Source: Cenarchaeum sp. (GTDB lineage Archaea; Thermoproteota; Nitrososphaeria; Nitrososphaerales; Nitrosopumilaceae). Taken from it: a stretch of 64,000 bases of DNA. Both the position numbers and the translations under genes were made by a program. Numbering within the stretch: position 1 is the stretch's first letter; every line of letters starts with the position of its first letter. Location: the NCBI GenBank assembly GCA_963693095.2, contig OY843768.1, positions 96,001-160,000 of the forward strand. Reading direction: 5' to 3'. Under the pieces are notes generated by a model. That model did no database searches and was not told where the DNA came from. It saw nothing but the letters and a program-made list of their open reading frames with translations. Positions 33,400-53,498 of the stretch are shown one piece after another.

Positions 33400-34923
33400 A
33401 TGGACACGATCGCAGTCCTGGACTTTGGCTCCCAGTACGCGCACCTGATCTGCAGGCGAATACGCTCGCTCTCTGTGCGCGCGGATCTAGTTGCGCATGA
33501 CACAAGCGTCGATGACCTGCGCCGTCGCGGCGTTCGCGGGATTGTGCTCTCTGGCGGCCCGTCAAGCGTGTATGACGAGGGCGCGCCGCGCCCCGACCCC
33601 GCAATATTCTCCATGGGCGTGCCGATACTTGGCATCTGCTATGGTCACCAGCTAGTCGTCGACGCGTTTGGCGGCCGCGTGCGCCGCGCCAACCGCGAGT
33701 ATGGCTCCTCCGAGCTGTCAGTGGACTCGGCCGACGGCCTCCTCGGCGGAATTGGCCCCTCGGTGCGCGCGTGGATGAGCCATGGCGATGAGGCCGAGCG
33801 CGTGCCAGACGGATTTGAGGTCATTGCGCACACGCGCTCCTCGAATGCTGCGGCCATTGCGGATGCGGCACGCTCAGTCTACAGCGTCCAGTTCCACCCC
33901 GAGGTCACGCACACCGAGCGCGGAGTCGACATTCTTGGCAACTTTGCGCTGCGCATATGCTCGGCAGGCGCTGACTGGACGATGGGCTCCTTTGTCGAGT
34001 CGCAGGTCCGGCGCCTCTCGTCGATCGAGGGCGGCGTCCTGTGCGGCGTGAGCGGCGGCGTGGACTCTACGGTCGTGGCGGTCCTCCTCCACAGGGCCAT
34101 CGGGGACCGCCTGCGCTGCGTCTTTGTCGACAATGGCCTCCTGCGCGAGGGCGAGGCCGACGAGGTCCGCTCGATCCTTGCGGGAGCCGGAGTCGAGAAC
34201 CTCGAGGTCATCGACGCCTCTGAGCGCTTTCTTGGGCGCCTCGCCGGCATTACCGATCCTGAGAAAAAGCGCCACGCCGTGGGCGACGAGTTTGCGCGCG
34301 TATTCACCGAGGCCGCACAGTCCGGTGCGGGATGCAAGTGGCTCGCGCAGGGGACGCTATACCCTGATGTCATCGAGAGCGGATCGACGCACGGGCCGGC
34401 TGACGTCATAAAGTCGCACCACAATGTCGGCGGACTGCCCAAATGGCTTGGCATGGAGACAGTCGAGCCGCTCCGCGAGCTCTACAAGGACGAGGTTCGC
34501 CGCGTCGCCGGCATACTCGGGCTGCCCGAGCGCGTTGTGTCGCGCCACCCCTTCCCCGGTCCGGGCCTCTCGGTGCGCGTCATGGGCGAGGCAACGCGCG
34601 AAAAGATCGAAATCGCACGAAAGGCTAGCGCCATAGTCGAGGCCGAGCTTGCCGCCGACGGCCTCCTCGCCTCGGTCTGGCAGGCCTATGCGGGAGTCGG
34701 CGATGACAGGGCCGTTGCCGTGATCGGCGACGCGCGCCTCCACGGGCGCGTCGTCATCATCAGGATTGTAGAGTCGACTGACGCAATGACTGCGGACTGG
34801 TCGCGCGTGCCCTATGACACGCTTGCGCGCATGAGCAACCGCATAACAAACGAGGTCGAGGGTGTCGCACTGGTGACATATGCGATATCTAGCAAGCCGC
34901 CTGCGACAATAGAGCTAGAGTGA
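33400..34923 (+). CDS. guaA: GMP synthase (glutamine-hydrolysing)
   Basis: LDFGSQY, GICYG, QFHPEV, SGGVDS, IKSHHNVGG, KPPATIE. Confidence 0.96.
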   Translation: MDTIAVLDFGSQYAHLICRRIRSLSVRADLVAHDTSVDDLRRRGVRGIVLSGGPSSVYDEGAPRPDPAIFSMGVPILGICYGHQLVVDAFGGRVRRANREYGSSELSVDSADGLLGGIGPSVRAWMSHGDEAERVPDGFEVIAHTRSSNAAAIADAARSVYSVQFHPEVTHTERGVDILGNFALRICSAGADWTMGSFVESQVRRLSSIEGGVLCGVSGGVDSTVVAVLLHRAIGDRLRCVFVDNGLLREGEADEVRSILAGAGVENLEVIDASERFLGRLAGITDPEKKRHAVGDEFARVFTEAAQSGAGCKWLAQGTLYPDVIESGSTHGPADVIKSHHNVGGLPKWLGMETVEPLRELYKDEVRRVAGILGLPERVVSRHPFPGPGLSVRVMGEATREKIEIARKASAIVEAELAADGLLASVWQAYAGVGDDRAVAVIGDARLHGRVVIIRIVESTDAMTADWSRVPYDTLARMSNRITNEVEGVALVTYAISSKPPATIELE

Positions 34924-45819: not shown

Positions 45820-46919
45820 TACTGCCGATCAAAAGTCCGTGCCGCATTCCAGCGACGTCCGGCCCAGGTATGCCATCACGTCGAGCCGGTACCTCGTGTG
45901 CCTGAAGTGCCGTGACACCGCCGTCCGCATATCCACCATGGTGGGGTAGTGCTCGGAGACCAGCAGCGCCCGCTTTGCCTGCCGCCACACCTCCTCGATC
46001 GCGTTGAGGTACGGCGAGCCGGTGGGCAGCTCGATCAGCCTCACCGCCCTGTGGGCGCGAAGATAGTCCTTCACCGCCGCGGCCCTGTGCTGCGGCGCCC
46101 TGTCGACGATCACGGCGACCCTGCCGAACTTCCTGTGCATGTCGCGCAGGAACGCGACAAACGTCTCCGCATCGAACCTGTCGTGCACCCGGAAGATCTG
46201 CTTCCCGTCAGTGGAGATCGCGCCGTACACCACGACCCTCCTGTGTCCCCCGGTGTACGGGGCGACGACGGGGACGCCCACGCGCGACCAGTACTTTGAT
46301 CCGTCGGCTGCGCCGTGCACGGCGATGGTCTCGTCCTGCACCACGATGGTGAATCCCGCGCGCCTGAGGCGCCTTATCTCGCGCCGCACCCGGCGCCGCC
46401 AGCCGGCGACAGTCGGCCCGTCGGCCCTGTTCACGTGCACCAGGCGCGTCCGCTTGGCGGAGAGGCCGGCCCTGCGCATTATTTTCCTGACGTGCGACAT
46501 GTGGAACCTCACGCCGGTGGCCCGCTCGATCTCCAGCATGACCTCTGCGGGCGTGACGCGCCCGGGCATTCGGCCAATCAGGCGGCCAAGCTTCTGCCGC
46601 GCGACCAGCGGCGGCCTGCCGGGGCGGGGGCGGTCCCGCAGGGCCTCGACACCGCCACTCCGGTAGCGCGCGACCCACTTGCCGACCCACCTGGGGCACT
46701 GCACGAGCGCAAGTGCGACCTCCTCGCGCGTCATCCCCAGGTTCTCGTGCATGTTGACCGCGGCAAACCTGTACCTGACGTCGCCGTCCCTCTCGTCGCG
46801 GAGTGCCCTGCGGAACGCTTCCAGCTCTTGGCCTTCCATGCGGGGCGTGGGGAGGGGCGATCCATATAGCATGCGGGTCGGGAAAGTTTGATCATGGCAC
46901 GAACTTTTGCTCGTCAGTA
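45820..46919 (-). mobile_element. IS630-family insertion sequence, 1100 bp, apparently intact
   Basis: TIRs TACTGCCGATCAAAAGTCCGTGCC (45820-45843) and TACTGACGAGCAAAAGTTCGTGCC (reverse complement of 46896-46919), 21/24 identical; TA at 45818-19 and 46920-21. Confidence 0.92.
45829..46872 (-). CDS. IS630 DDE transposase
   Basis: HTH W..RY..GG...L.DRPRPGRPP, VQDET, IVDRAPQH, PTGSPYLNAIEEVW; start ATG 46872 or 46839, inside the TIRs. Confidence 0.92.
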   Translation of the reverse strand: MLYGSPLPTPRMEGQELEAFRRALRDERDGDVRYRFAAVNMHENLGMTREEVALALVQCPRWVGKWVARYRSGGVEALRDRPRPGRPPLVARQKLGRLIGRMPGRVTPAEVMLEIERATGVRFHMSHVRKIMRRAGLSAKRTRLVHVNRADGPTVAGWRRRVRREIRRLRRAGFTIVVQDETIAVHGAADGSKYWSRVGVPVVAPYTGGHRRVVVYGAISTDGKQIFRVHDRFDAETFVAFLRDMHRKFGRVAVIVDRAPQHRAAAVKDYLRAHRAVRLIELPTGSPYLNAIEEVWRQAKRALLVSEHYPTMVDMRTAVSRHFRHTRYRLDVMAYLGRTSLECGTDF

Positions 46920-47050
46920 TAGCTCTTATCCTCAAACTCTTCCGGGAGCTCGGCTATGTATCATAGTCTGAGAGGGATATGCCTACGGCTGGAACGCTTA
47001 TCACGACGATCTATCCCTGATATTTCAGTAGATTGGATGTGTAATGTTTT

Positions 47051-49759
47051 TTATCGATCAGCATACTTTTTGATTATGATGTGAACATCATCTGGATCAT
47101 ACGCTACGTCCCACTCCCATTTACCAAACCTACCATCTGCATTCACTGTTTCAATCCATTCTTTCAATGCATCGTGTTTTTTTGTAGTTTGTTCATTATG
47201 TTGTCCTTTAATCTCTAAAATTAACGTGACGTTATTTTCTAGCTGGACAAGATAATCAGGATTATAATCATGAATCTCTCCTTTAAATTGATATTTCACA
47301 TTGAATCCAGATATGTAGTTTTTTACCCATGAGATGACTCTTTCATTTTTGTCTAATTCTTTGCTAGCTTGCTCTTCCCATTTATTATCGCATGGGCTAG
47401 GATTAATATGTGATTTTGTTGCGTTGACAACTTTTTTTGTAGTGTACCATGCTTGCATATCGTTAGTTGATTTTTGTTGTTTTGTGTTGCCAAAAATTAT
47501 TTTTTTATATTTTGTGTTATCAGCTCGTATGAAATCATGTATGTATATGACAATAGTTTTCATGTTGAACATGATCGCTAATTGTTTTCTTATTTTTAAC
47601 TTATCAGTTAAATTTAAAAATTTAATTTTATCTAATTCGATAAATTTCTCAACAATTTTAACAATTTGAAAAAAAAGATAGTTCTTATTTCCTGACCATT
47701 CTGGGATTGTTATATGATCATAAATATCACTTACAGTCTGGAAAATTATTGTTTGCATTCGTAATTTGTTGTAGGATTTCTGCAATGTTATCTCTGAAGC
47801 ACGACTAATGTCTAATTTTGAATCTAGCATTGGGGCTACGTGTATAGTTGTGGTGACTTTTGATCTAATCCTCAATGTTGAAACTTTTTTCCAGTTGATT
47901 TTTAAAACTGGTGTGATTATGGTTTCGATTCTAGCTATGTTTGGCCAGCTTATCTCGTGTTGAATATTGATTGGATCACACGCTATGCGTGTTTTCGTCT
48001 TTTCCTTTCGAATCTTACCTGGTGTGTTCTCATGTGGCAGAAATGAAAACGGTACTCCGAGTATATTGACATATTCTTTATCTAACAAACCAGTTTCAGG
48101 ATCTATTTCATATGATAAGCGGCGTAAACCTCTGCCTACCACTTGTTCACATAAAAGTTGACTAGTAAATGCACGTAACCCCATTATGTGAGTGACATTT
48201 TTTGCATCCCATCCTTCAGACAGCATTTGTACTGCAATAATATTCATTATTTGTTCTCCGGGTTTATCTTTTTGACCCACCGTGTTGATTATTTCACGAA
48301 TGGCATCAGTTTTAGCAGATTGTTTTTCCCCACGTTCAGATTTTAAAACACTTGTATCTATACGACACATTCTATTTTCATCTGCCAGTTCCCCAAATTT
48401 ATATATACTATTCTTAAAAAAATGTACTACTCTGGCTGATGTATGTACACTATTACACACAGTAATCATTACTGGGATTATATTTGATTTTTTCAGCTCT
48501 TTTCGTTTCATCGCCCAATCATTTCCGAGTAATATGTATGCATTACGGACTAAATCGGGTAGTGTCGTTTCGGGTTTTTTTGCGCCTTTTAGATCGCTTT
48601 TTACTTTATCATTGTCGTATATATGATAATATTTGGAACGATCTCCATACTTGAGTGATTTGCCATCATCACCTGCAGGCATACGTGGAGTTTTTACAAG
48701 GCCAGATTCTATAGCATCGTTAAGTGAAAAATCAGAAATTATCCATTTGAATAAAATATCATCGTTTGGCTTATTTTTGCTTGGAATAAACGGCGTAGCT
48801 GTAAAATCAAAGCATGTGACAATAGTTCGTGCTCTATCTAATTTATCAAGTCCTTCGATCCATAATGTGGCCATCATCTCATCCATGTTTGATTCAAAGT
48901 CTGATTGTTCTTCATAGTCATTTTTAAGTTTTCTCCAAGCATGATGTGCTTCATCATTTATCACTATTATGTTATCATAATTATGCTCCAAAATCCTTTT
49001 CGCGAATGCTTCATCGCTTTCAACTCCTCTACGAACCACACTATGAGGTTGATCTTCTGCTGGTTTCAGCGTGTGCCAATTATGAATTTTTAATTTCCCA
49101 TGTCTTAGATTTTCATACATTGAATCTGGTATTATCGAATAAAGATGGTAATAACTGTTTTCTTGATCAGGTGGCCATAGCACTTGCAGTCGTGATTTTA
49201 CAGTAAGTCCTGGAGCAACAACCACAATGTGTTTTGAAAATCTTTTATCTTGTGGGTATGACACTTTGTTTAATATTTGCCATGCGATTACCATTGCCAT
49301 TACTACTGTTTTCCCTGTCCCCGTTGCCATTTTTGAACACAATCTTTTGAACAGTCCACCATCAGTGCCTAGCCCGAGTTCCTTTTTTTCTGATTCGGGA
49401 GACTCTATCATCCAAATTATTGTTTCTATAGCTTCTAATTGACAAAAGAAAAAACGATGTGCTTGACGCATAGATGGATCGTTCCAAAACTCTAGGAGTT
49501 GCCTTGTTATTCCTGTGACCCCGGGATAACCTTTGTCTCTCCATCGATCTACTCGCTCTCTTATGATATTTACAGATTGTATAGGATAAAATGCGCCAGG
49601 ATCATCAATAGAATTGTTTTCTGGAGATGCAATTATGTATCCTGCTGGCCTCCTTTTTCCAACAATGCGTTCGGGCTTGCGTGTCTCGAGATTAAACTTC
49701 CAGTACTCTTTAGGTTTTTCATACGGGTTGCATATTATCAATTGATCGATTTCGTCCAA
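47051..49759 (-). CDS. res: Type III restriction enzyme Res subunit
   Basis: MATGTGKT, INDEAHH, LSEGWD, EQVVGRGLR, PDYLV...LEIKG nuclease motif; AT-rich. Confidence 0.9.
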   Translation of the reverse strand: MDEIDQLIICNPYEKPKEYWKFNLETRKPERIVGKRRPAGYIIASPENNSIDDPGAFYPIQSVNIIRERVDRWRDKGYPGVTGITRQLLEFWNDPSMRQAHRFFFCQLEAIETIIWMIESPESEKKELGLGTDGGLFKRLCSKMATGTGKTVVMAMVIAWQILNKVSYPQDKRFSKHIVVVAPGLTVKSRLQVLWPPDQENSYYHLYSIIPDSMYENLRHGKLKIHNWHTLKPAEDQPHSVVRRGVESDEAFAKRILEHNYDNIIVINDEAHHAWRKLKNDYEEQSDFESNMDEMMATLWIEGLDKLDRARTIVTCFDFTATPFIPSKNKPNDDILFKWIISDFSLNDAIESGLVKTPRMPAGDDGKSLKYGDRSKYYHIYDNDKVKSDLKGAKKPETTLPDLVRNAYILLGNDWAMKRKELKKSNIIPVMITVCNSVHTSARVVHFFKNSIYKFGELADENRMCRIDTSVLKSERGEKQSAKTDAIREIINTVGQKDKPGEQIMNIIAVQMLSEGWDAKNVTHIMGLRAFTSQLLCEQVVGRGLRRLSYEIDPETGLLDKEYVNILGVPFSFLPHENTPGKIRKEKTKTRIACDPINIQHEISWPNIARIETIITPVLKINWKKVSTLRIRSKVTTTIHVAPMLDSKLDISRASEITLQKSYNKLRMQTIIFQTVSDIYDHITIPEWSGNKNYLFFQIVKIVEKFIELDKIKFLNLTDKLKIRKQLAIMFNMKTIVIYIHDFIRADNTKYKKIIFGNTKQQKSTNDMQAWYTTKKVVNATKSHINPSPCDNKWEEQASKELDKNERVISWVKNYISGFNVKYQFKGEIHDYNPDYLVQLENNVTLILEIKGQHNEQTTKKHDALKEWIETVNADGRFGKWEWDVAYDPDDVHIIIKKYADR

Positions 49760-49762
49760 ATC

Positions 49763-52335
49763 TCATGGCTCCATAATTCGTAATGTTTCTATTCCTCTGT
49801 CATCAATTATTTTAACTGCAATTTTTTTATTTGTTCCCAATTTAAACGGTATAGATAATATTCCTGAATATTTCTCCAACAAATATTCTTCAACATATGG
49901 TTTTAATGTTTTTGCTATTTTATTCCATGAGCTTTGTACATCCAACATTGGAAAAAATACTTGTTGTGGGTATATGCTTCGCCCATCATAATCTGTATCT
50001 AACATCCACATAGCAATACGCGTTGGATCGCCGGGTTCAACCTTATTTGTTATTGTATTGTAATAATCAAACTCCTTAACCATTACTTCCCATTCATTTT
50101 TTTTCTTTTTAAGCTCCACGTCAGGTTGACCTATTAACATGAATGATTCATTTTTTATTTGTTTATTTTTTAAATCACTCGTAAACAAATCGCCATTTAT
50201 CTGAGCTTTTAATATTACAATACCGGGCCATCTGAGTTCGTCTATGTCTTTTGCTGCTTCGGGATCAAACTGCAACGCTGCAAAAATCACCATTGCGGGT
50301 TTTTCGCCTAATTTACGAACCTCTTGTATCGCATTTTCAACCTGACGTTGTTCAAGAGGTGTATGTGCTGATCCAAACGATATTAAAACAGTTTTTGTTT
50401 CCTTTTCGTTTGTTTTAGCTTTTGCATGTAACCACCTGGTTGTTGGATGTGGATCTACACTTAGAAATTTTATTTTTTGCTTGTTTTTACCAACAATTCC
50501 AGTTTTTAACAGCTCTTGGCGCCAATCAGACTGTCTTTTACTTTCGTTGTTTTCTAGATCTGATTCTTTATATTGATTAACATACATTAGATCTAATGAC
50601 TTGGACGTTGGTGATGGTACTGCCTCTACTGTGAACGGGCCTGATACTCTCGTCTTTGACGAATCTTTGTCTGGACAATCGTACAAAATTACATTGTTGG
50701 GTTCTTCATCATGTGATATTGATTTTTGAGTTATTTGTTGTATTTTTTTATATGAAAATCCAGCATCAATACCTTGGCCGGGGTTTTCTAATTTATAATA
50801 TTTATAAGTCGCAGTCATTAATCTTCTTTTTGTTAATGCAATTGCCACGCGTGATGTGTCACATGTAATCCAACGTCTCCCAAATTCTTCTGCTACGAAT
50901 GCGGTTGTCCCAGATCCGCAAGTAGGATCTAATATGAGATCACCTGGATCGCTAGTCATCAATATGAATCGACGAATTACTTTAGCTGTGGTTTGAACAA
51001 CATATATCTTGTTTTCAAATCCCCCACTACTTGTGTCATCCCACATATTCTGGAGTTCGGCGTATTCAAAATCATTGAAATAGCGCACATATGATAACCT
51101 GTTACCATTTTTCATAATTCGATTTTTTGTGATCAAGTATTTCATGCCTTTAAGTGATGCCTTCCAATGACTATGCTGACCAGGTGTGAACACTTCACCG
51201 TCAAATATGAGAGAATCGTCACTCTTTGACTTGCCCGGAGATGTTGTGGCAGCAAGCCTATAAATTTTTGATTCTGATGGTATGCTAAGTGGGTTATCTC
51301 TTTGCTCCTTTGTCATTCTTATACGTTCGCCCTCTTTTAATTCTAAATATTTGTAATTCGGATCGTTGATGGGCAATTCTTTTTTTGTATACAGTTTGTG
51401 AGATTTTAACAGTTTTTTATTTTTTGCATACCATACAATATAATCAAACACCACTGAAATATGCGTACTTGTAGAATTTGATGTTTTTCTAAATGAGATC
51501 ACGCTTACAAAATTCTCATACCCAAACACTTCATCCATTATTATGCGTACATAATGCAAATTATCATCAGAAATTTGTACCCCACAACTTCCAGTTTCAT
51601 TTAATAGCTCTTTTGCTAAAATTAACCGATCGCGCAAGTATCCCAAGTATGAATGAATTCCATGCTTCCATGTGTCTCTAAATGCTGTCACCATTTCTGG
51701 TTCCTGTGTGAGATCATCATCATTACGATCTTTAACATTCATTTTATTTACAAACGGTTGAAAGTTTGACTTATATTCAATACCGTATGGCGGATCTATG
51801 TATATTGTTTGAATTTTTCCTGCAAAATTTTCTTTTTGTAATAGGGAGTTCATAACTAACAGAGAATCTCCGGCAATTAATCGATTTGACCAATTATGTG
51901 AATGTTGATAAAATTGCAATGCTTCTCGTAACGGAAGATTGTATTCATCATGATCAAAATGAAGGGTAATTTTTTGTTGGATGTGAGTCTCTGGCTTCAG
52001 AATTTTATCAATAATTGTTATAGGATCAATACGTTCATGTTGATGTAGCGACACTGTATCGATTTCAAAATTTCCATCTTTTTGCTTCTCAAACCAGACT
52101 AATACCGGGTCTAAATGAGGGTCATATTCGTATTTGGTTGGATCATGATCACGATCTGTGTTGGGATCAACAAGCCCTACGGGTGGGTTATTTGGTCGTG
52201 CGCTACTGTGATAATACTGCTGAATGCGTTCTCGTAGCTTGGGTTCTGACTTTGATGCTTTTGTGGCTTTATTTTTTGACTTTTTGCTGGGGGGGGGGGT
52301 CGTCGTGTTCCTATTTTCGTTTTAGTCAACGGCAT
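49763..52335 (-). CDS. mod: Type III R-M Mod subunit (amino-methyltransferase, probably N6-adenine), frameshifted at a C11 tract
   Basis: IYIDPPY and LDPTCGSGTT motifs; long frame open to 52321 without a start before GTG 52054; ATG 52335 joins it only with C9 or C12. Confidence 0.88.
52289..52299 (-). repeat. Homopolymer C11 (G11 on + strand) in the 5' coding region of mod
   Basis: + strand gct-GGGGGGGGGGG-tcg inside an otherwise AT-rich island. Confidence 0.95.
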
Positions 52336-52643
52336 ACCCCCACTATAACCACACGGCTTGCGTTGTTATATGTAAAACACATAGTGTTGACATACTTATA
52401 GAGTTGAGTGCTCCAATAGCATTCTTTCTGGGTCATTGCTAACGCCCACTCGCAAGTTATTTTCTATATATAGGTACCAGCGCATATTGGTCATATTCAC
52501 TGTGTTTTCTACAGGGTGGATGTGATTCTTCAGACGACTATTATTTCTGGCGTATTCTATGGTTTTACGTTTTGTCTGATCTGCCAGGGTAATAGTTCTG
52601 TACGCCTAGGCATTAATATGGCTCCCACCCGACGCCCGCCTGA

Positions 52644-53498
52644 ATGGCAAAGGCGACAGTCGGCATATCCATAGTCGGGCGTGACCACGAGGGAGTCGTG
52701 GCCGCCTTCACGTCATACGCGTTTCAGGGCGGGGCCAACATTGAAAGGATCACGCAGAACGTCATAAAGGGCCTCTTTGGCATGTACCTCGAGGTCTCAT
52801 TCTCCCGTCCCCCGGACCGCAAGTCATTTGACGCCGGGCTGCAGAAACTCGCCAAATCGCACGGCATGGAGGTCAGCGCGCACCACGAGGACGGCTCTAC
52901 AAAGCAGATCGCAGTCTTTGTGACTCGCGAGCCGCACTGCCTTGAGGCCATACTCGCCGCACAAAAGTCACTGCACGGTGGCAAGGTCGCAGTTGTTGTG
53001 GGAACCACACGGTCACTTGCGCCAATGTGCAAAAAGGCACGCGTCCCGTTCATGACCATCGAGGAGCGCAACCAGGAAAAGGCCGAGGCGCGACTGCTGA
53101 AAATCTGTAGGGAAAAGAACATTGACGTTATCGTCCTGGCCCGCTACATGCGCATACTCACGCCAAACTTTGTCTGGCGCTATCCAAACCGCATCATCAA
53201 CGTTCATCCCTCACTCCTGCCTGCATTCCCCGGCGCATCGGCATACGCGCAGGCGCACGAGCGCGGCACAAAGATCGCCGGAGTCACCACACACTATGTG
53301 ACCGAGAGCCTTGACCAGGGCCCGATAATCGCACAGCGCTCATTTGAGATTCGCGCAGACGATGCGCTTGAAAAGATAAAGGTTGCAGGCCAGAGGCTAG
53401 AGGCGCGCGCGCTCCTAGAGTCACTAAAGCTGCACCTTGCTGGCAGGCTCGAGGTTCGATGGCGAAAGGTTCACGCAAGGACGACACGGCGCAAATAG
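52644..53498 (+). CDS. purU: Formyltetrahydrofolate deformylase
   Basis: N-terminal ACT domain, VLARYMRIL, INVHPSLLPAF.GA, LDQGPII. Confidence 0.9.
   Translation: MAKATVGISIVGRDHEGVVAAFTSYAFQGGANIERITQNVIKGLFGMYLEVSFSRPPDRKSFDAGLQKLAKSHGMEVSAHHEDGSTKQIAVFVTREPHCLEAILAAQKSLHGGKVAVVVGTTRSLAPMCKKARVPFMTIEERNQEKAEARLLKICREKNIDVIVLARYMRILTPNFVWRYPNRIINVHPSLLPAFPGASAYAQAHERGTKIAGVTTHYVTESLDQGPIIAQRSFEIRADDALEKIKVAGQRLEARALLESLKLHLAGRLEVRWRKVHARTTRRK

Follow-up and report, generated by a model that had tools for sequence, protein, structure and literature searches.

In a 64,000-nucleotide (nt) stretch of the genome of a Cenarchaeum species (GenBank assembly GCA_963693095.2, contig OY843768.1, positions 96,001 to 160,000; hereafter the window, numbered from its first letter), the mod gene of a type III restriction-modification (R-M) system carries a run of 11 cytosines (C11) near its 5' end, which probably serves as a slipped-strand switch that toggles mod and, with it, the whole type III system. 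This reading had been put forward in an earlier note on the same DNA, and it was supported by an in-frame C18 allele, by purifying selection on the gene, by the conserved N-terminus of its product and by a genome-wide set of similar tracts. In the proposed mechanism, C11 would be a hypermutable simple-sequence repeat whose length is altered by slipped-strand mispairing during replication. At lengths that are multiples of three (C9, C12, C15, C18), translation from the ATG at position 52335 would run through MPLTKTKIGTRR-(Pro)n-SKKSKNK... into a Mod protein of ~857-859 amino acids (aa), target sites would be methylated and, with the Res subunit, foreign DNA would be restricted (ON state). Other lengths, such as the one assembled here, would yield a 52-codon peptide and no Mod (OFF state); Res would then be harmless, since a type III Res needs Mod, on which it depends for DNA recognition. 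The locus would thus be a heritable, reversible ON/OFF switch of an R-M system, and one of ~15 such tracts in the genome. We infer the mechanism and rate of switching, the promoter and the Mod-dependence of Res, the last from established type III biology. Control of a regulon is speculative: that methylation by Mod governs other genes, which would make the locus a phasevarion, is a hypothesis to which we assign at most a rather low probability.

Re-reading of the minus strand showed every element of the described 5' end to be in place. The ATG at 52335 is followed by 11 sense codons (CCG TTG ACT AAA ACG AAA ATA GGA ACA CGA CGA), C11 opens exactly at codon 13 of the ATG frame, and AGC AAA AAG comes next. 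With C11, the ATG frame ends at a TAG after 52 residues, in agreement with the ~52 codons reported earlier. The Mod frame is open from 52321 to 49766 (852 codons), with its stop at 49763-65, and is closed upstream by a TAA at 52324-52322; as previously stated, a frame scan found no ATG, GTG or TTG in it between this TAA and the GTG at 52054, which opens an open reading frame (ORF) of 763 codons. Codon starts fall at 0 modulo 3 in the ATG frame and at 1 modulo 3 in the Mod frame. Because of this offset, the two frames are fused by -2, +1, +4 or +7 C, so that C15 and C18 are ON lengths in addition to the C9 and C12 already named in the earlier note, while C10, C11 and C13 are out of frame (OFF). 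The present assembly therefore holds the gene in the OFF state, as claimed. A simple sequence repeat inside the mod ORF that sets the frame by its length is what characterizes a repeat-mediated phase-variable mod gene, and this is what was found. In an ON allele, Mod residues 12-852 would be joined to MPLTKTKIGTRR(P)n, and the N-terminus would read MPLTKTKIGTRR(P)nSKKSKNKATK.... The TATA-box-like element TTTTACATATAA ahead of the ATG is a candidate promoter of mod and res (coordinates of all features are given in Table 1).

Comparison of tract length across samples had been proposed as a check on the switch, and C11, C18 and C10 were seen, not one uniform length. The lengths were taken from assembled contigs of four public sequencing runs (X1, X2, X5 and X6) over positions 51700-52900 and from G004, the closest complete relative of the genome holding the window (G000), which is an independently assembled sister species in the same genus. 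G004 has the island that carries mod at the same place, with DNA 99% identical around the tract, and also has C11. A 649-nt contig of X1 (study P1, depth ~6) crosses the tract gap-free and again gives C11. The tract is crossed in X5 (study P2, depth 498) by one 1284-nt contig with 7 extra G, giving an in-frame C18. One contig of X2 (study P2), with a depth of 32.6 of 348.8, is one base shorter (C10). The 20 listed base differences between the X5 contig and the window all fall on sites where G004 also departs from the window (20 of 21 such sites within 51700-52675), and C11 and C18 thus occur on one haplotype (G004, X5) with no listed difference in ~970 flanking bases. It follows that an ON allele exists in nature and that the tract changes faster than its flanks. 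Spanning contigs from two studies hence differ in length between samples and include both ON and OFF alleles. In X2 and X6, the listed contig pieces stop at 52298 or 52274 and start again at 52301, which leaves the tract there without cover, and an exact-pattern scan of metagenome contigs for both flanks of the tract, separated by a gap of variable length, returned no matches.

Selection on the two genes was examined by comparing G000 and G004 (Nei-Gojobori method). The Mod frames differ at 114 nucleotides and 37 amino acids, and neither genome has a stop in the 852 codons. Synonymous divergence (dS) of mod is 0.159 and nonsynonymous divergence (dN) 0.019, giving a dN/dS of 0.12, and that of res is 0.085 over the 498 codons compared. 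Both assemblies are OFF, yet the gene is under purifying selection; therefore, mod must have been translated through most of the divergence of G000 and G004, and a frameshift with selection acting behind it should be either transient and reversible, or bypassed. For mod codons 12-89 alone, dS is 0.02, and the 5 differences there are too few for an informative dN/dS. These results also bear on whether mod is a decaying pseudogene, its frameshift fixed and the horizontally acquired island around it on the way to being lost. The AT-rich island, the transposase ORF at its flank and a public source that gives the G004 copy only as a truncated protein of 696 aa would agree with decay, but no further stop or frameshift is present in mod (852 codons) or res of either genome, the above dN/dS values were obtained at a dS of 0.16-0.18, and an in-frame allele exists. 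We consider such decay exceedingly improbable. As a separate observation, the 5' end of mod and the region upstream of it (52054-52700) are ~99% identical between G000 and G004, and the rest of mod (49763-52053) has a dS of 0.18; this contrast suggests recent recombination or conversion around the tract.

C11 is the only G/C run of at least 9 in the window. Dinucleotide shuffles of the whole window gave a mean of 0.35 nine-mers and reached the observed 3 overlapping matches in 4 of 100 cases, a test that is indecisive because the window is 62% GC overall. For the 5.4-kilobase island (C 0.19, G 0.17), a model of independent and identically distributed bases gives an expected number of 7e-5 for runs of at least 11, and no other G/C run of the island exceeds 5. 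The tract is accordingly the sole long G/C run of an AT-rich island, as had been noted. On the main contig of G000 (C1, 1.98 Mb), G/C runs of lengths 5 to 9 number 2010, 428, 43, 4 and 0, respectively, followed by 15 runs of 10-21; this bimodal distribution is no product of base composition.

The assignment of the long frame to a type III Mod, also made in the earlier note, was borne out by several searches. The frame contains an N6/N4 methyltransferase domain (PF01555, 6.6e-31, Pfam) and matches the PADLOC model MTase_III (PDLC03632, 7e-138), its best PDB matches are type III Mod chains (6k0w, 9e-19; 4zcf, EcoP15I Mod, 3e-15), and res lies downstream. The putative motif IV (DPPY, residues 176-179; D176, P177, P178 and Y179 invariant) precedes the putative motif I (DPTCGSGTT, 465-473), the motif order of the beta class, to which type III Mods belong; a beta-class N6/N4 methyltransferase domain, as belongs to the Mod subunit of a type III system, is thus present. 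The best 120 homologs have 696-917 aa, and nearly all span 94-100% of the 852-residue frame. Conservation was assessed in an alignment of 42 sequences, namely the query and 41 homologs of 745-917 aa.

The N-terminus of this family indicates where translation should begin. The motifs YYH, RPNNPPVGLV, YEYDPHLDPVLVW and DTVSLHQHERIDP, which had been recognized as the family N-terminus, are all present in the translation and do constitute its conserved N-terminal part. Among 15 homologs inspected, 13 start with a K/R-rich leader that is short and poorly conserved, after which comes xQYxH..(K/R)xNNPPVGLV, the remaining two being the G004 copy P0003 (truncated) and P0005, starting MGLV right after the NNPPV motif. 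The nearest full-length homologs inspected, P0004 (68% identity) and P0006 (60%; both from the 42-sequence alignment), have N-termini of the form Met-x(5-9)-PPP(P)-K/R-rich at the matching position (...MKQKRNMTPAPPPPKKRKTASRKK... and MSKNEILDPPPRKSSKKPRSGKR..., respectively), a leader layout that is what an ON allele would give here. Residues 36-90 of Mod include 6 invariant columns (G49, Y64, P72, L74, W76 and K79) and 14 columns conserved at 90% or more. Since the N-terminal stretch has no start codon of its own, the ATG at 52335, read through the tract, is the sole route to this conserved segment.

Tract-independent expression, either from the GTG at 52054 or from a non-canonical start (the ATT of ...ERIQQYYH), is therefore to be weighed against the same alignment, and we judge it very unlikely. 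The GTG does open the 763-codon ORF mentioned above, and the shortest N-terminus among the inspected homologs (P0036, MEQYTH...) begins about at the ATT codon. However, a product from the GTG would lose residues 36-90, an N-terminal segment conserved in all 41 aligned homologs and containing 20 columns at 90% or more across the 42 sequences; the GTG itself encodes V90, a nearly invariant internal valine of the motif TVSLHxHERI; and no promoter-like element was seen by eye ahead of it. Mod homologs in two other ammonia oxidizers (G017 and G037) begin at a plain in-frame ATG ~12 codons before QYxH, and the ATT start has no supporting data. Several homologs from sources of low GC content, P0008 and P0009 among them, have a lysine run at the extreme N-terminus (MKIKKKKKIV... 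and LVVKKKKKPL...), and for P0007 and P0009 the called start is a Leu codon; poly-A runs may often encode the leader in the Mod family and could act as repeat switches in other hosts.

Tracts were also found in other mod genes. Besides the gene described above (mod1), G000 has a second complete type III system, with a Mod2 frame of 524 codons (PADLOC MTase_III, 1e-114) and a Res2 of 841 aa (REase_III, 1e-145). Both of its type III mod genes thus carry tracts, both of 11 nt and both out of frame. At the Mod2 site, the shared flank is 93% identical between G000 (G000:C1:283560-285549) and G004 (G004:C1:277574-280106, L047), and the two genomes hold different type III systems; this site looks like an exchange hot spot for R-M islands. 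The G004 paralog at this site is 44% identical to Mod1 and reads ATG ATG AAG ACC GTC G followed by C26, out of frame. A Mod homolog of another genus (G019), with 36% identity, in which ten codons separate the ATG from C11, is likewise out of frame. The G004 paralog and the G019 homolog share the layout of mod: an ATG, few codons, poly-C and a basic leader. The presence of the tract in orthologs, a further point raised in the earlier note, held in part: it was found in G004 and in the G019 homolog, and was missing from the homologs of G017 and G037. A search of genome contigs for related loci gave 7 loci, one in G004 and six in bacterial metagenome-assembled genomes (40-51% identity), and a scan of related loci for the N-terminal motif matched 4 of 11 (L001, L005, L006 and L007). 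Within the genus, the search picked up the mod 5' region in G000 and G004 and, as a weak match, in G002; G001 and G003, with a completeness of 72% and 91%, may still carry it.

Several of these observations weigh against a length switch at mod1. The tract lengths come from assembled contigs, not reads, so that heterogeneity within a population is outside their reach, and those derived from assemblies may carry homopolymer errors. The C10 contig accounts for ~9% of depth in X2, which contains two haplotypes, and could reflect slippage in the library or during sequencing, or the second haplotype of this run. C11 recurs in three data sets (G000, G004 and X1) and could be a stable allele. The best-covering run and an assembly may stem from one sample and would then not be independent. 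All four independent tract-bearing mod loci in the assemblies (mod1, Mod2, the G004 paralog and the G019 homolog) are out of frame, which has a chance of ~0.2. A shift of +1 nt would restore three of them, a pattern that would also fit a one-base undercall or programmed recoding. Finally, since the homologs of G017 and G037 lack a tract, it is dispensable for the function of the Mod family.

Two of these points lead to alternative explanations. In the main rival, recoding, RNA polymerase would add a C, or ribosomes would slip by -1 on C CCC CCC, where both tRNA-Pro re-pair; C11 alleles would then steadily give full-length Mod at a low dose, with the tract acting as an expression attenuator. 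Long homopolymers provoke transcriptional slippage. The out-of-frame state of all four loci, the +1 nt needed by three of them (mod1 C11, paralog C26, G019 C11), which equals a -1 ribosomal shift, the C11 common to G000, G004 and the X1 contig, and purifying selection even though both genomes are OFF would all agree with recoding. On the other hand, an in-frame C18 is present on the G004 haplotype, Mod2 needs -1 or +2 nt and not +1, and four loci are too few for significance (chance of at least three of four being of one kind, ~0.3). We regard recoding as unlikely to account for the tract; it may coexist with length switching, making the OFF state leaky. The other explanation is a homopolymer miscall, by which the true sequence of G000 would be C12 (ON) and the frameshift an assembly artefact. 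Long-read consensus errs most often by homopolymer indels, one added base restores the frame here, and the same holds for three of the four tract-bearing mod loci; but two separate assemblies and the X1 contig give 11, and another contig gives 18, which makes a miscall quite improbable. Even if there were one, the main conclusion would stand, because the tract would still be a polymorphic repeat in the 5' end of mod. A length switch read from C11 (OFF) and C18 (ON) thus remains our preferred explanation.

Downstream of mod, the res gene starts with a TTG two codons past the mod stop and in the same frame, with a GGAG 9 nt upstream. Its product contains the ResIII helicase domain (Pfam; Table 1), matches the PADLOC model REase_III (2.4e-11) and passes the NCBIfam equivalog model 'BPTD_3080 family restriction endonuclease' with 928.7 bits (cut-off, 800). 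A helicase-type res gene therefore directly follows mod, as in type III R-M systems. Judging from sequence, this is a complete type III mod-res operon on a horizontally acquired island.

G000 is a genome of 2.0 Mb in two contigs, with 60% GC and 99.55% completeness; judging from the records, the organism is uncultured. Its rRNA genes fit the archaeal small- and large-subunit models in a model search, and profile searches of the genome detected AmoA of the archaeal type (389 bits) and no McrA. Because AmoA is present, McrA is absent and the rRNA is archaeal, G000 was identified as an ammonia-oxidizing archaeon; the absence of McrA together with the presence of AmoA ruled out a methanogen. Cenarchaeum is a genus of symbionts of marine sponges. 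An archaeal R-M survey lists 25 R-M loci, two of them type III, in C. symbiosum A, and the consulted part of it is silent on archaeal phase variation (PMC10609329). Searches of G000 (99.55% complete) detected neither MutS (MutS_V, PF00488) nor NucS (PF01939), while control genomes responded; this absence fits a high repeat instability, without proving it.

Besides the switch at mod1, it is possible, though we hold this only tentatively, that this archaeon and its relatives possess a genome-wide set of hypermutable poly-G/C contingency loci. Such a set would include the two type III R-M systems, the GmrSD type IV enzyme, the C5 methylase and six or more giant surface proteins of the Ig-like type, whose tracts would lie upstream of an archaeal TATA box; the two mod switches would possibly be archaeal phasevarions. 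Bacterial contingency loci are classically R-M genes and genes of giant surface proteins. Of the 15 long G/C tracts in G000, 11 are located at R-M, peptidase or giant ORFs, which is not a random scatter, and four adjoin ORFs without a family. One of them, a G10 in frame, is at the 5' end of a gene for a putative metallopeptidase of 996 aa (DUF4344). The six runs before giant ORFs are 30-55 nt upstream of a TATA-like box (TTATATAC / ATTATATA), with the ATG ~20-25 nt past the box. To our knowledge, there is no precedent for a repeat upstream of an archaeal core promoter. The six giant ORFs encode 1316-1399 aa with hydrophobic N-termini; a Big_5 Ig-like domain scores above the Pfam cut-off in one of them and below it in another.

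Comparison with relatives supported this picture in part. G004 has at least 14 such tracts. Among eight orthologous tracts in G000 and G004, five differ (17/21, 17/18, 19/18, 19/7, and 16 vs C13-T-C4), one matches in total length yet contains an interrupting T, and the last two are the same in both genomes; the 19/7 pair agrees at 89 of 90 flanking bases. An excess of long repeats at the 5' ends of R-M and surface genes that vary between relatives, as is characteristic of multi-locus contingency, is thus present. All 5 genomes of the genus have runs of ten G/C. Such runs also turned up in 7 of 20 genomes from the other genera of the family and, beyond the family, in 2 of 16, with a single match on each strand; the comparison is confounded by the low GC content of many relatives. 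G005, from a sister genus (53% GC; C1, L082-L091), has ten G/C runs of 10-13 nt. Nine of the ten are at most ~360 nt from the 5' end of an ORF of more than 830 aa, and Ig-like (Big_12), HYR, FG-GAP, beta-propeller or subtilase domains occur in seven of these nine ORFs; the trait therefore extends beyond one genus. In G010, the tracts lie near housekeeping genes, with no clear link to R-M or surface genes.

Two further observations concern the repeats of G000. It also contains the long repeats (TGCC)34, (GGCGTCTC)12, (CCAGAGCG)7 and (CGCCGCAA)17 (G000:C1:1747265-1747400, 33829-33924, 712050-712105 and 1790912-1791047, respectively), which are intergenic or at the 5' ends of ORFs, and none of which has a unit length divisible by three. 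Directly after the poly-C at 1324331 and 1328123 (G000:C1:1324290-1324330 and 1328080-1328122), in gene orientation, comes CG(C/A)GATCAGGGCCTGATCG; this element, with the palindrome GATCAGG/CCTGATC, may be a candidate protein-binding site beside the tract.

Table 1. Features of the mod-res locus (window positions) and further tracts in G000.
Feature	Position	Strand	Remark
mod ATG start codon	52333..52335	-	only start giving access to the conserved Mod N-terminus
C11 homopolymer (G11 on + strand), proposed slipped-strand switch	52289..52299	-	sequence re-read
52-codon frame from the ATG in the C11 (OFF) state, TAG end	52177..52335	-	ORF translation
type III Mod frame, stop to stop, 852 codons + stop	49763..52321	-	translation
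GTG, first formal start in the Mod frame, codon 90	52052..52054	-	internal Val V90, motif TVSLHxHERI; unlikely start
TATA-box-like TTTTACATATAA, ~30 nt upstream of ATG 52335	52366..52377	-	by eye; identical in G004
res, 902 codons, intact	47051..49759	-	ResIII 1.1e-10; BPTD_3080
low-GC island carrying mod-res, approximate borders	46950..52400	.	GC 0.36 vs 0.62 around
IS630-type transposase ORF (DDE_3 + HTH domains), res end of island	45829..46935	-	Pfam
Mod2 G11	G000:C1:285034-285044 (L081:4039-8300; outside window)		~97 codons after ATG, just past DPPY; needs G10 or G13
C11 between TATA-like box and ATG of GmrSD_N type IV restriction enzyme	G000:C1:1812968-1812978		
G12, 225 nt upstream of C5 cytosine DNA methylase	G000:C1:813399-813410		
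six poly-G/C runs, 14-21 nt, before giant ORFs	G000:C1 337054, 493170, 515985, 766200, 776010, 1324331		

The locus resembles the phase-variable type III mod genes of host-adapted bacteria (modA in Haemophilus influenzae and Neisseria, modH in Helicobacter pylori and modM in Moraxella; surveyed by Atack et al. 2018, PMC5909438) in that a simple repeat in the 5' part of the mod ORF sets the frame, res lies downstream, more than one repeat-bearing mod is present per genome, the assembly is in the OFF state, and length varies between isolates. It differs from them in its host, an ammonia-oxidizing archaeon in which switching, methylation and a regulon are proposed only, in its long Mod (~857 aa) and its Res of the BPTD_3080 family, and in that poly-C encodes a proline run in an unconserved basic leader. 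With the poly-G/C contingency loci of Campylobacter jejuni and H. pylori, it shares the bimodal G/C runs, ~15 tracts per ~2 Mb, tracts at R-M and surface genes, and no detected MutS-type mismatch repair; unlike there, six tracts here are 30-55 nt upstream of the TATA-like box of giant surface-protein genes. For the Campylobacter and Helicobacter side of this comparison, the abstract of PMC539331 was consulted. The locus shares with EcoP1I and EcoP15I (4zcf) a Mod of the beta class, in which motif IV comes ahead of motif I, the organization as a mod-res operon and a helicase domain in Res, but only the methyltransferase core aligns with EcoP15I (query 140-307 to chain 89-256, E 3e-15), and the N-terminal 140 and C-terminal 340 residues of Mod have no sequence match among solved structures. 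The Pyrobaculum aerophilum genome paper of 2002 reportedly described unstable mononucleotide runs, and these archaea, like Sulfolobus acidocaldarius, lack MutS and MutL and have homopolymer runs as mutation hot spots, as appears to be the case here. For S. acidocaldarius, frameshifts in short runs are reported in the consulted part of PMC4471258. Unlike the tracts described here, the runs of both organisms were presented as a mutational property and not as switches of R-M or surface genes.

Our literature search found no archaeal repeat-switched R-M gene, in line with the earlier statement that no archaeal case was known; an unremarked entry in the supplementary tables of Atack et al. 2018 is possible. 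A term search of the main text of PMC5909438 gave no mention of archaea, and no such gene is described in the consulted parts of PMC10609329, PMC13076061, PMC2831843, PMC3315296, PMC11868660 and the preprint 10.1101/2025.10.21.683753. Of these, a 2010 survey gives a statistical treatment of short poly-A/T runs across 18 archaeal genomes (PMC2831843, in the part consulted), and the archaeal citation seen in the preprint is, by its title, a 1987 paper on simple repeats in archaebacterial genomes. This is thus a known kind of switch, now in a domain of life in which we found none described. A 2025 review, as far as its consulted part goes, treats the restriction of multi-locus phase-variable genomes to pathogens as an open question, as it does the distribution of phase-variable loci in archaea, and calls for surveys across archaeal phylogenies (PMC11868660).

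Repeat-driven phase variation of R-M and surface genes is commonly held to be a hallmark of host-adapted bacterial pathogens. The mod tract, together with the 14 others, offers a concrete archaeal candidate with natural ON and OFF alleles that can be compared in metagenomes. Annotation pipelines would undercount active archaeal R-M systems because such genes are called truncated, as is the G004 copy (696 aa). If the wider reading is true, this would be the first multi-locus phase-variable archaeon and a case outside pathogens, in which a symbiont switches its defence and cell surface stochastically. If confirmed, slipped-strand switching of defence would work together with archaeal replication and TATA/TFB-type transcription, and the locus would provide a way to test gene regulation by DNA methylation in archaea.

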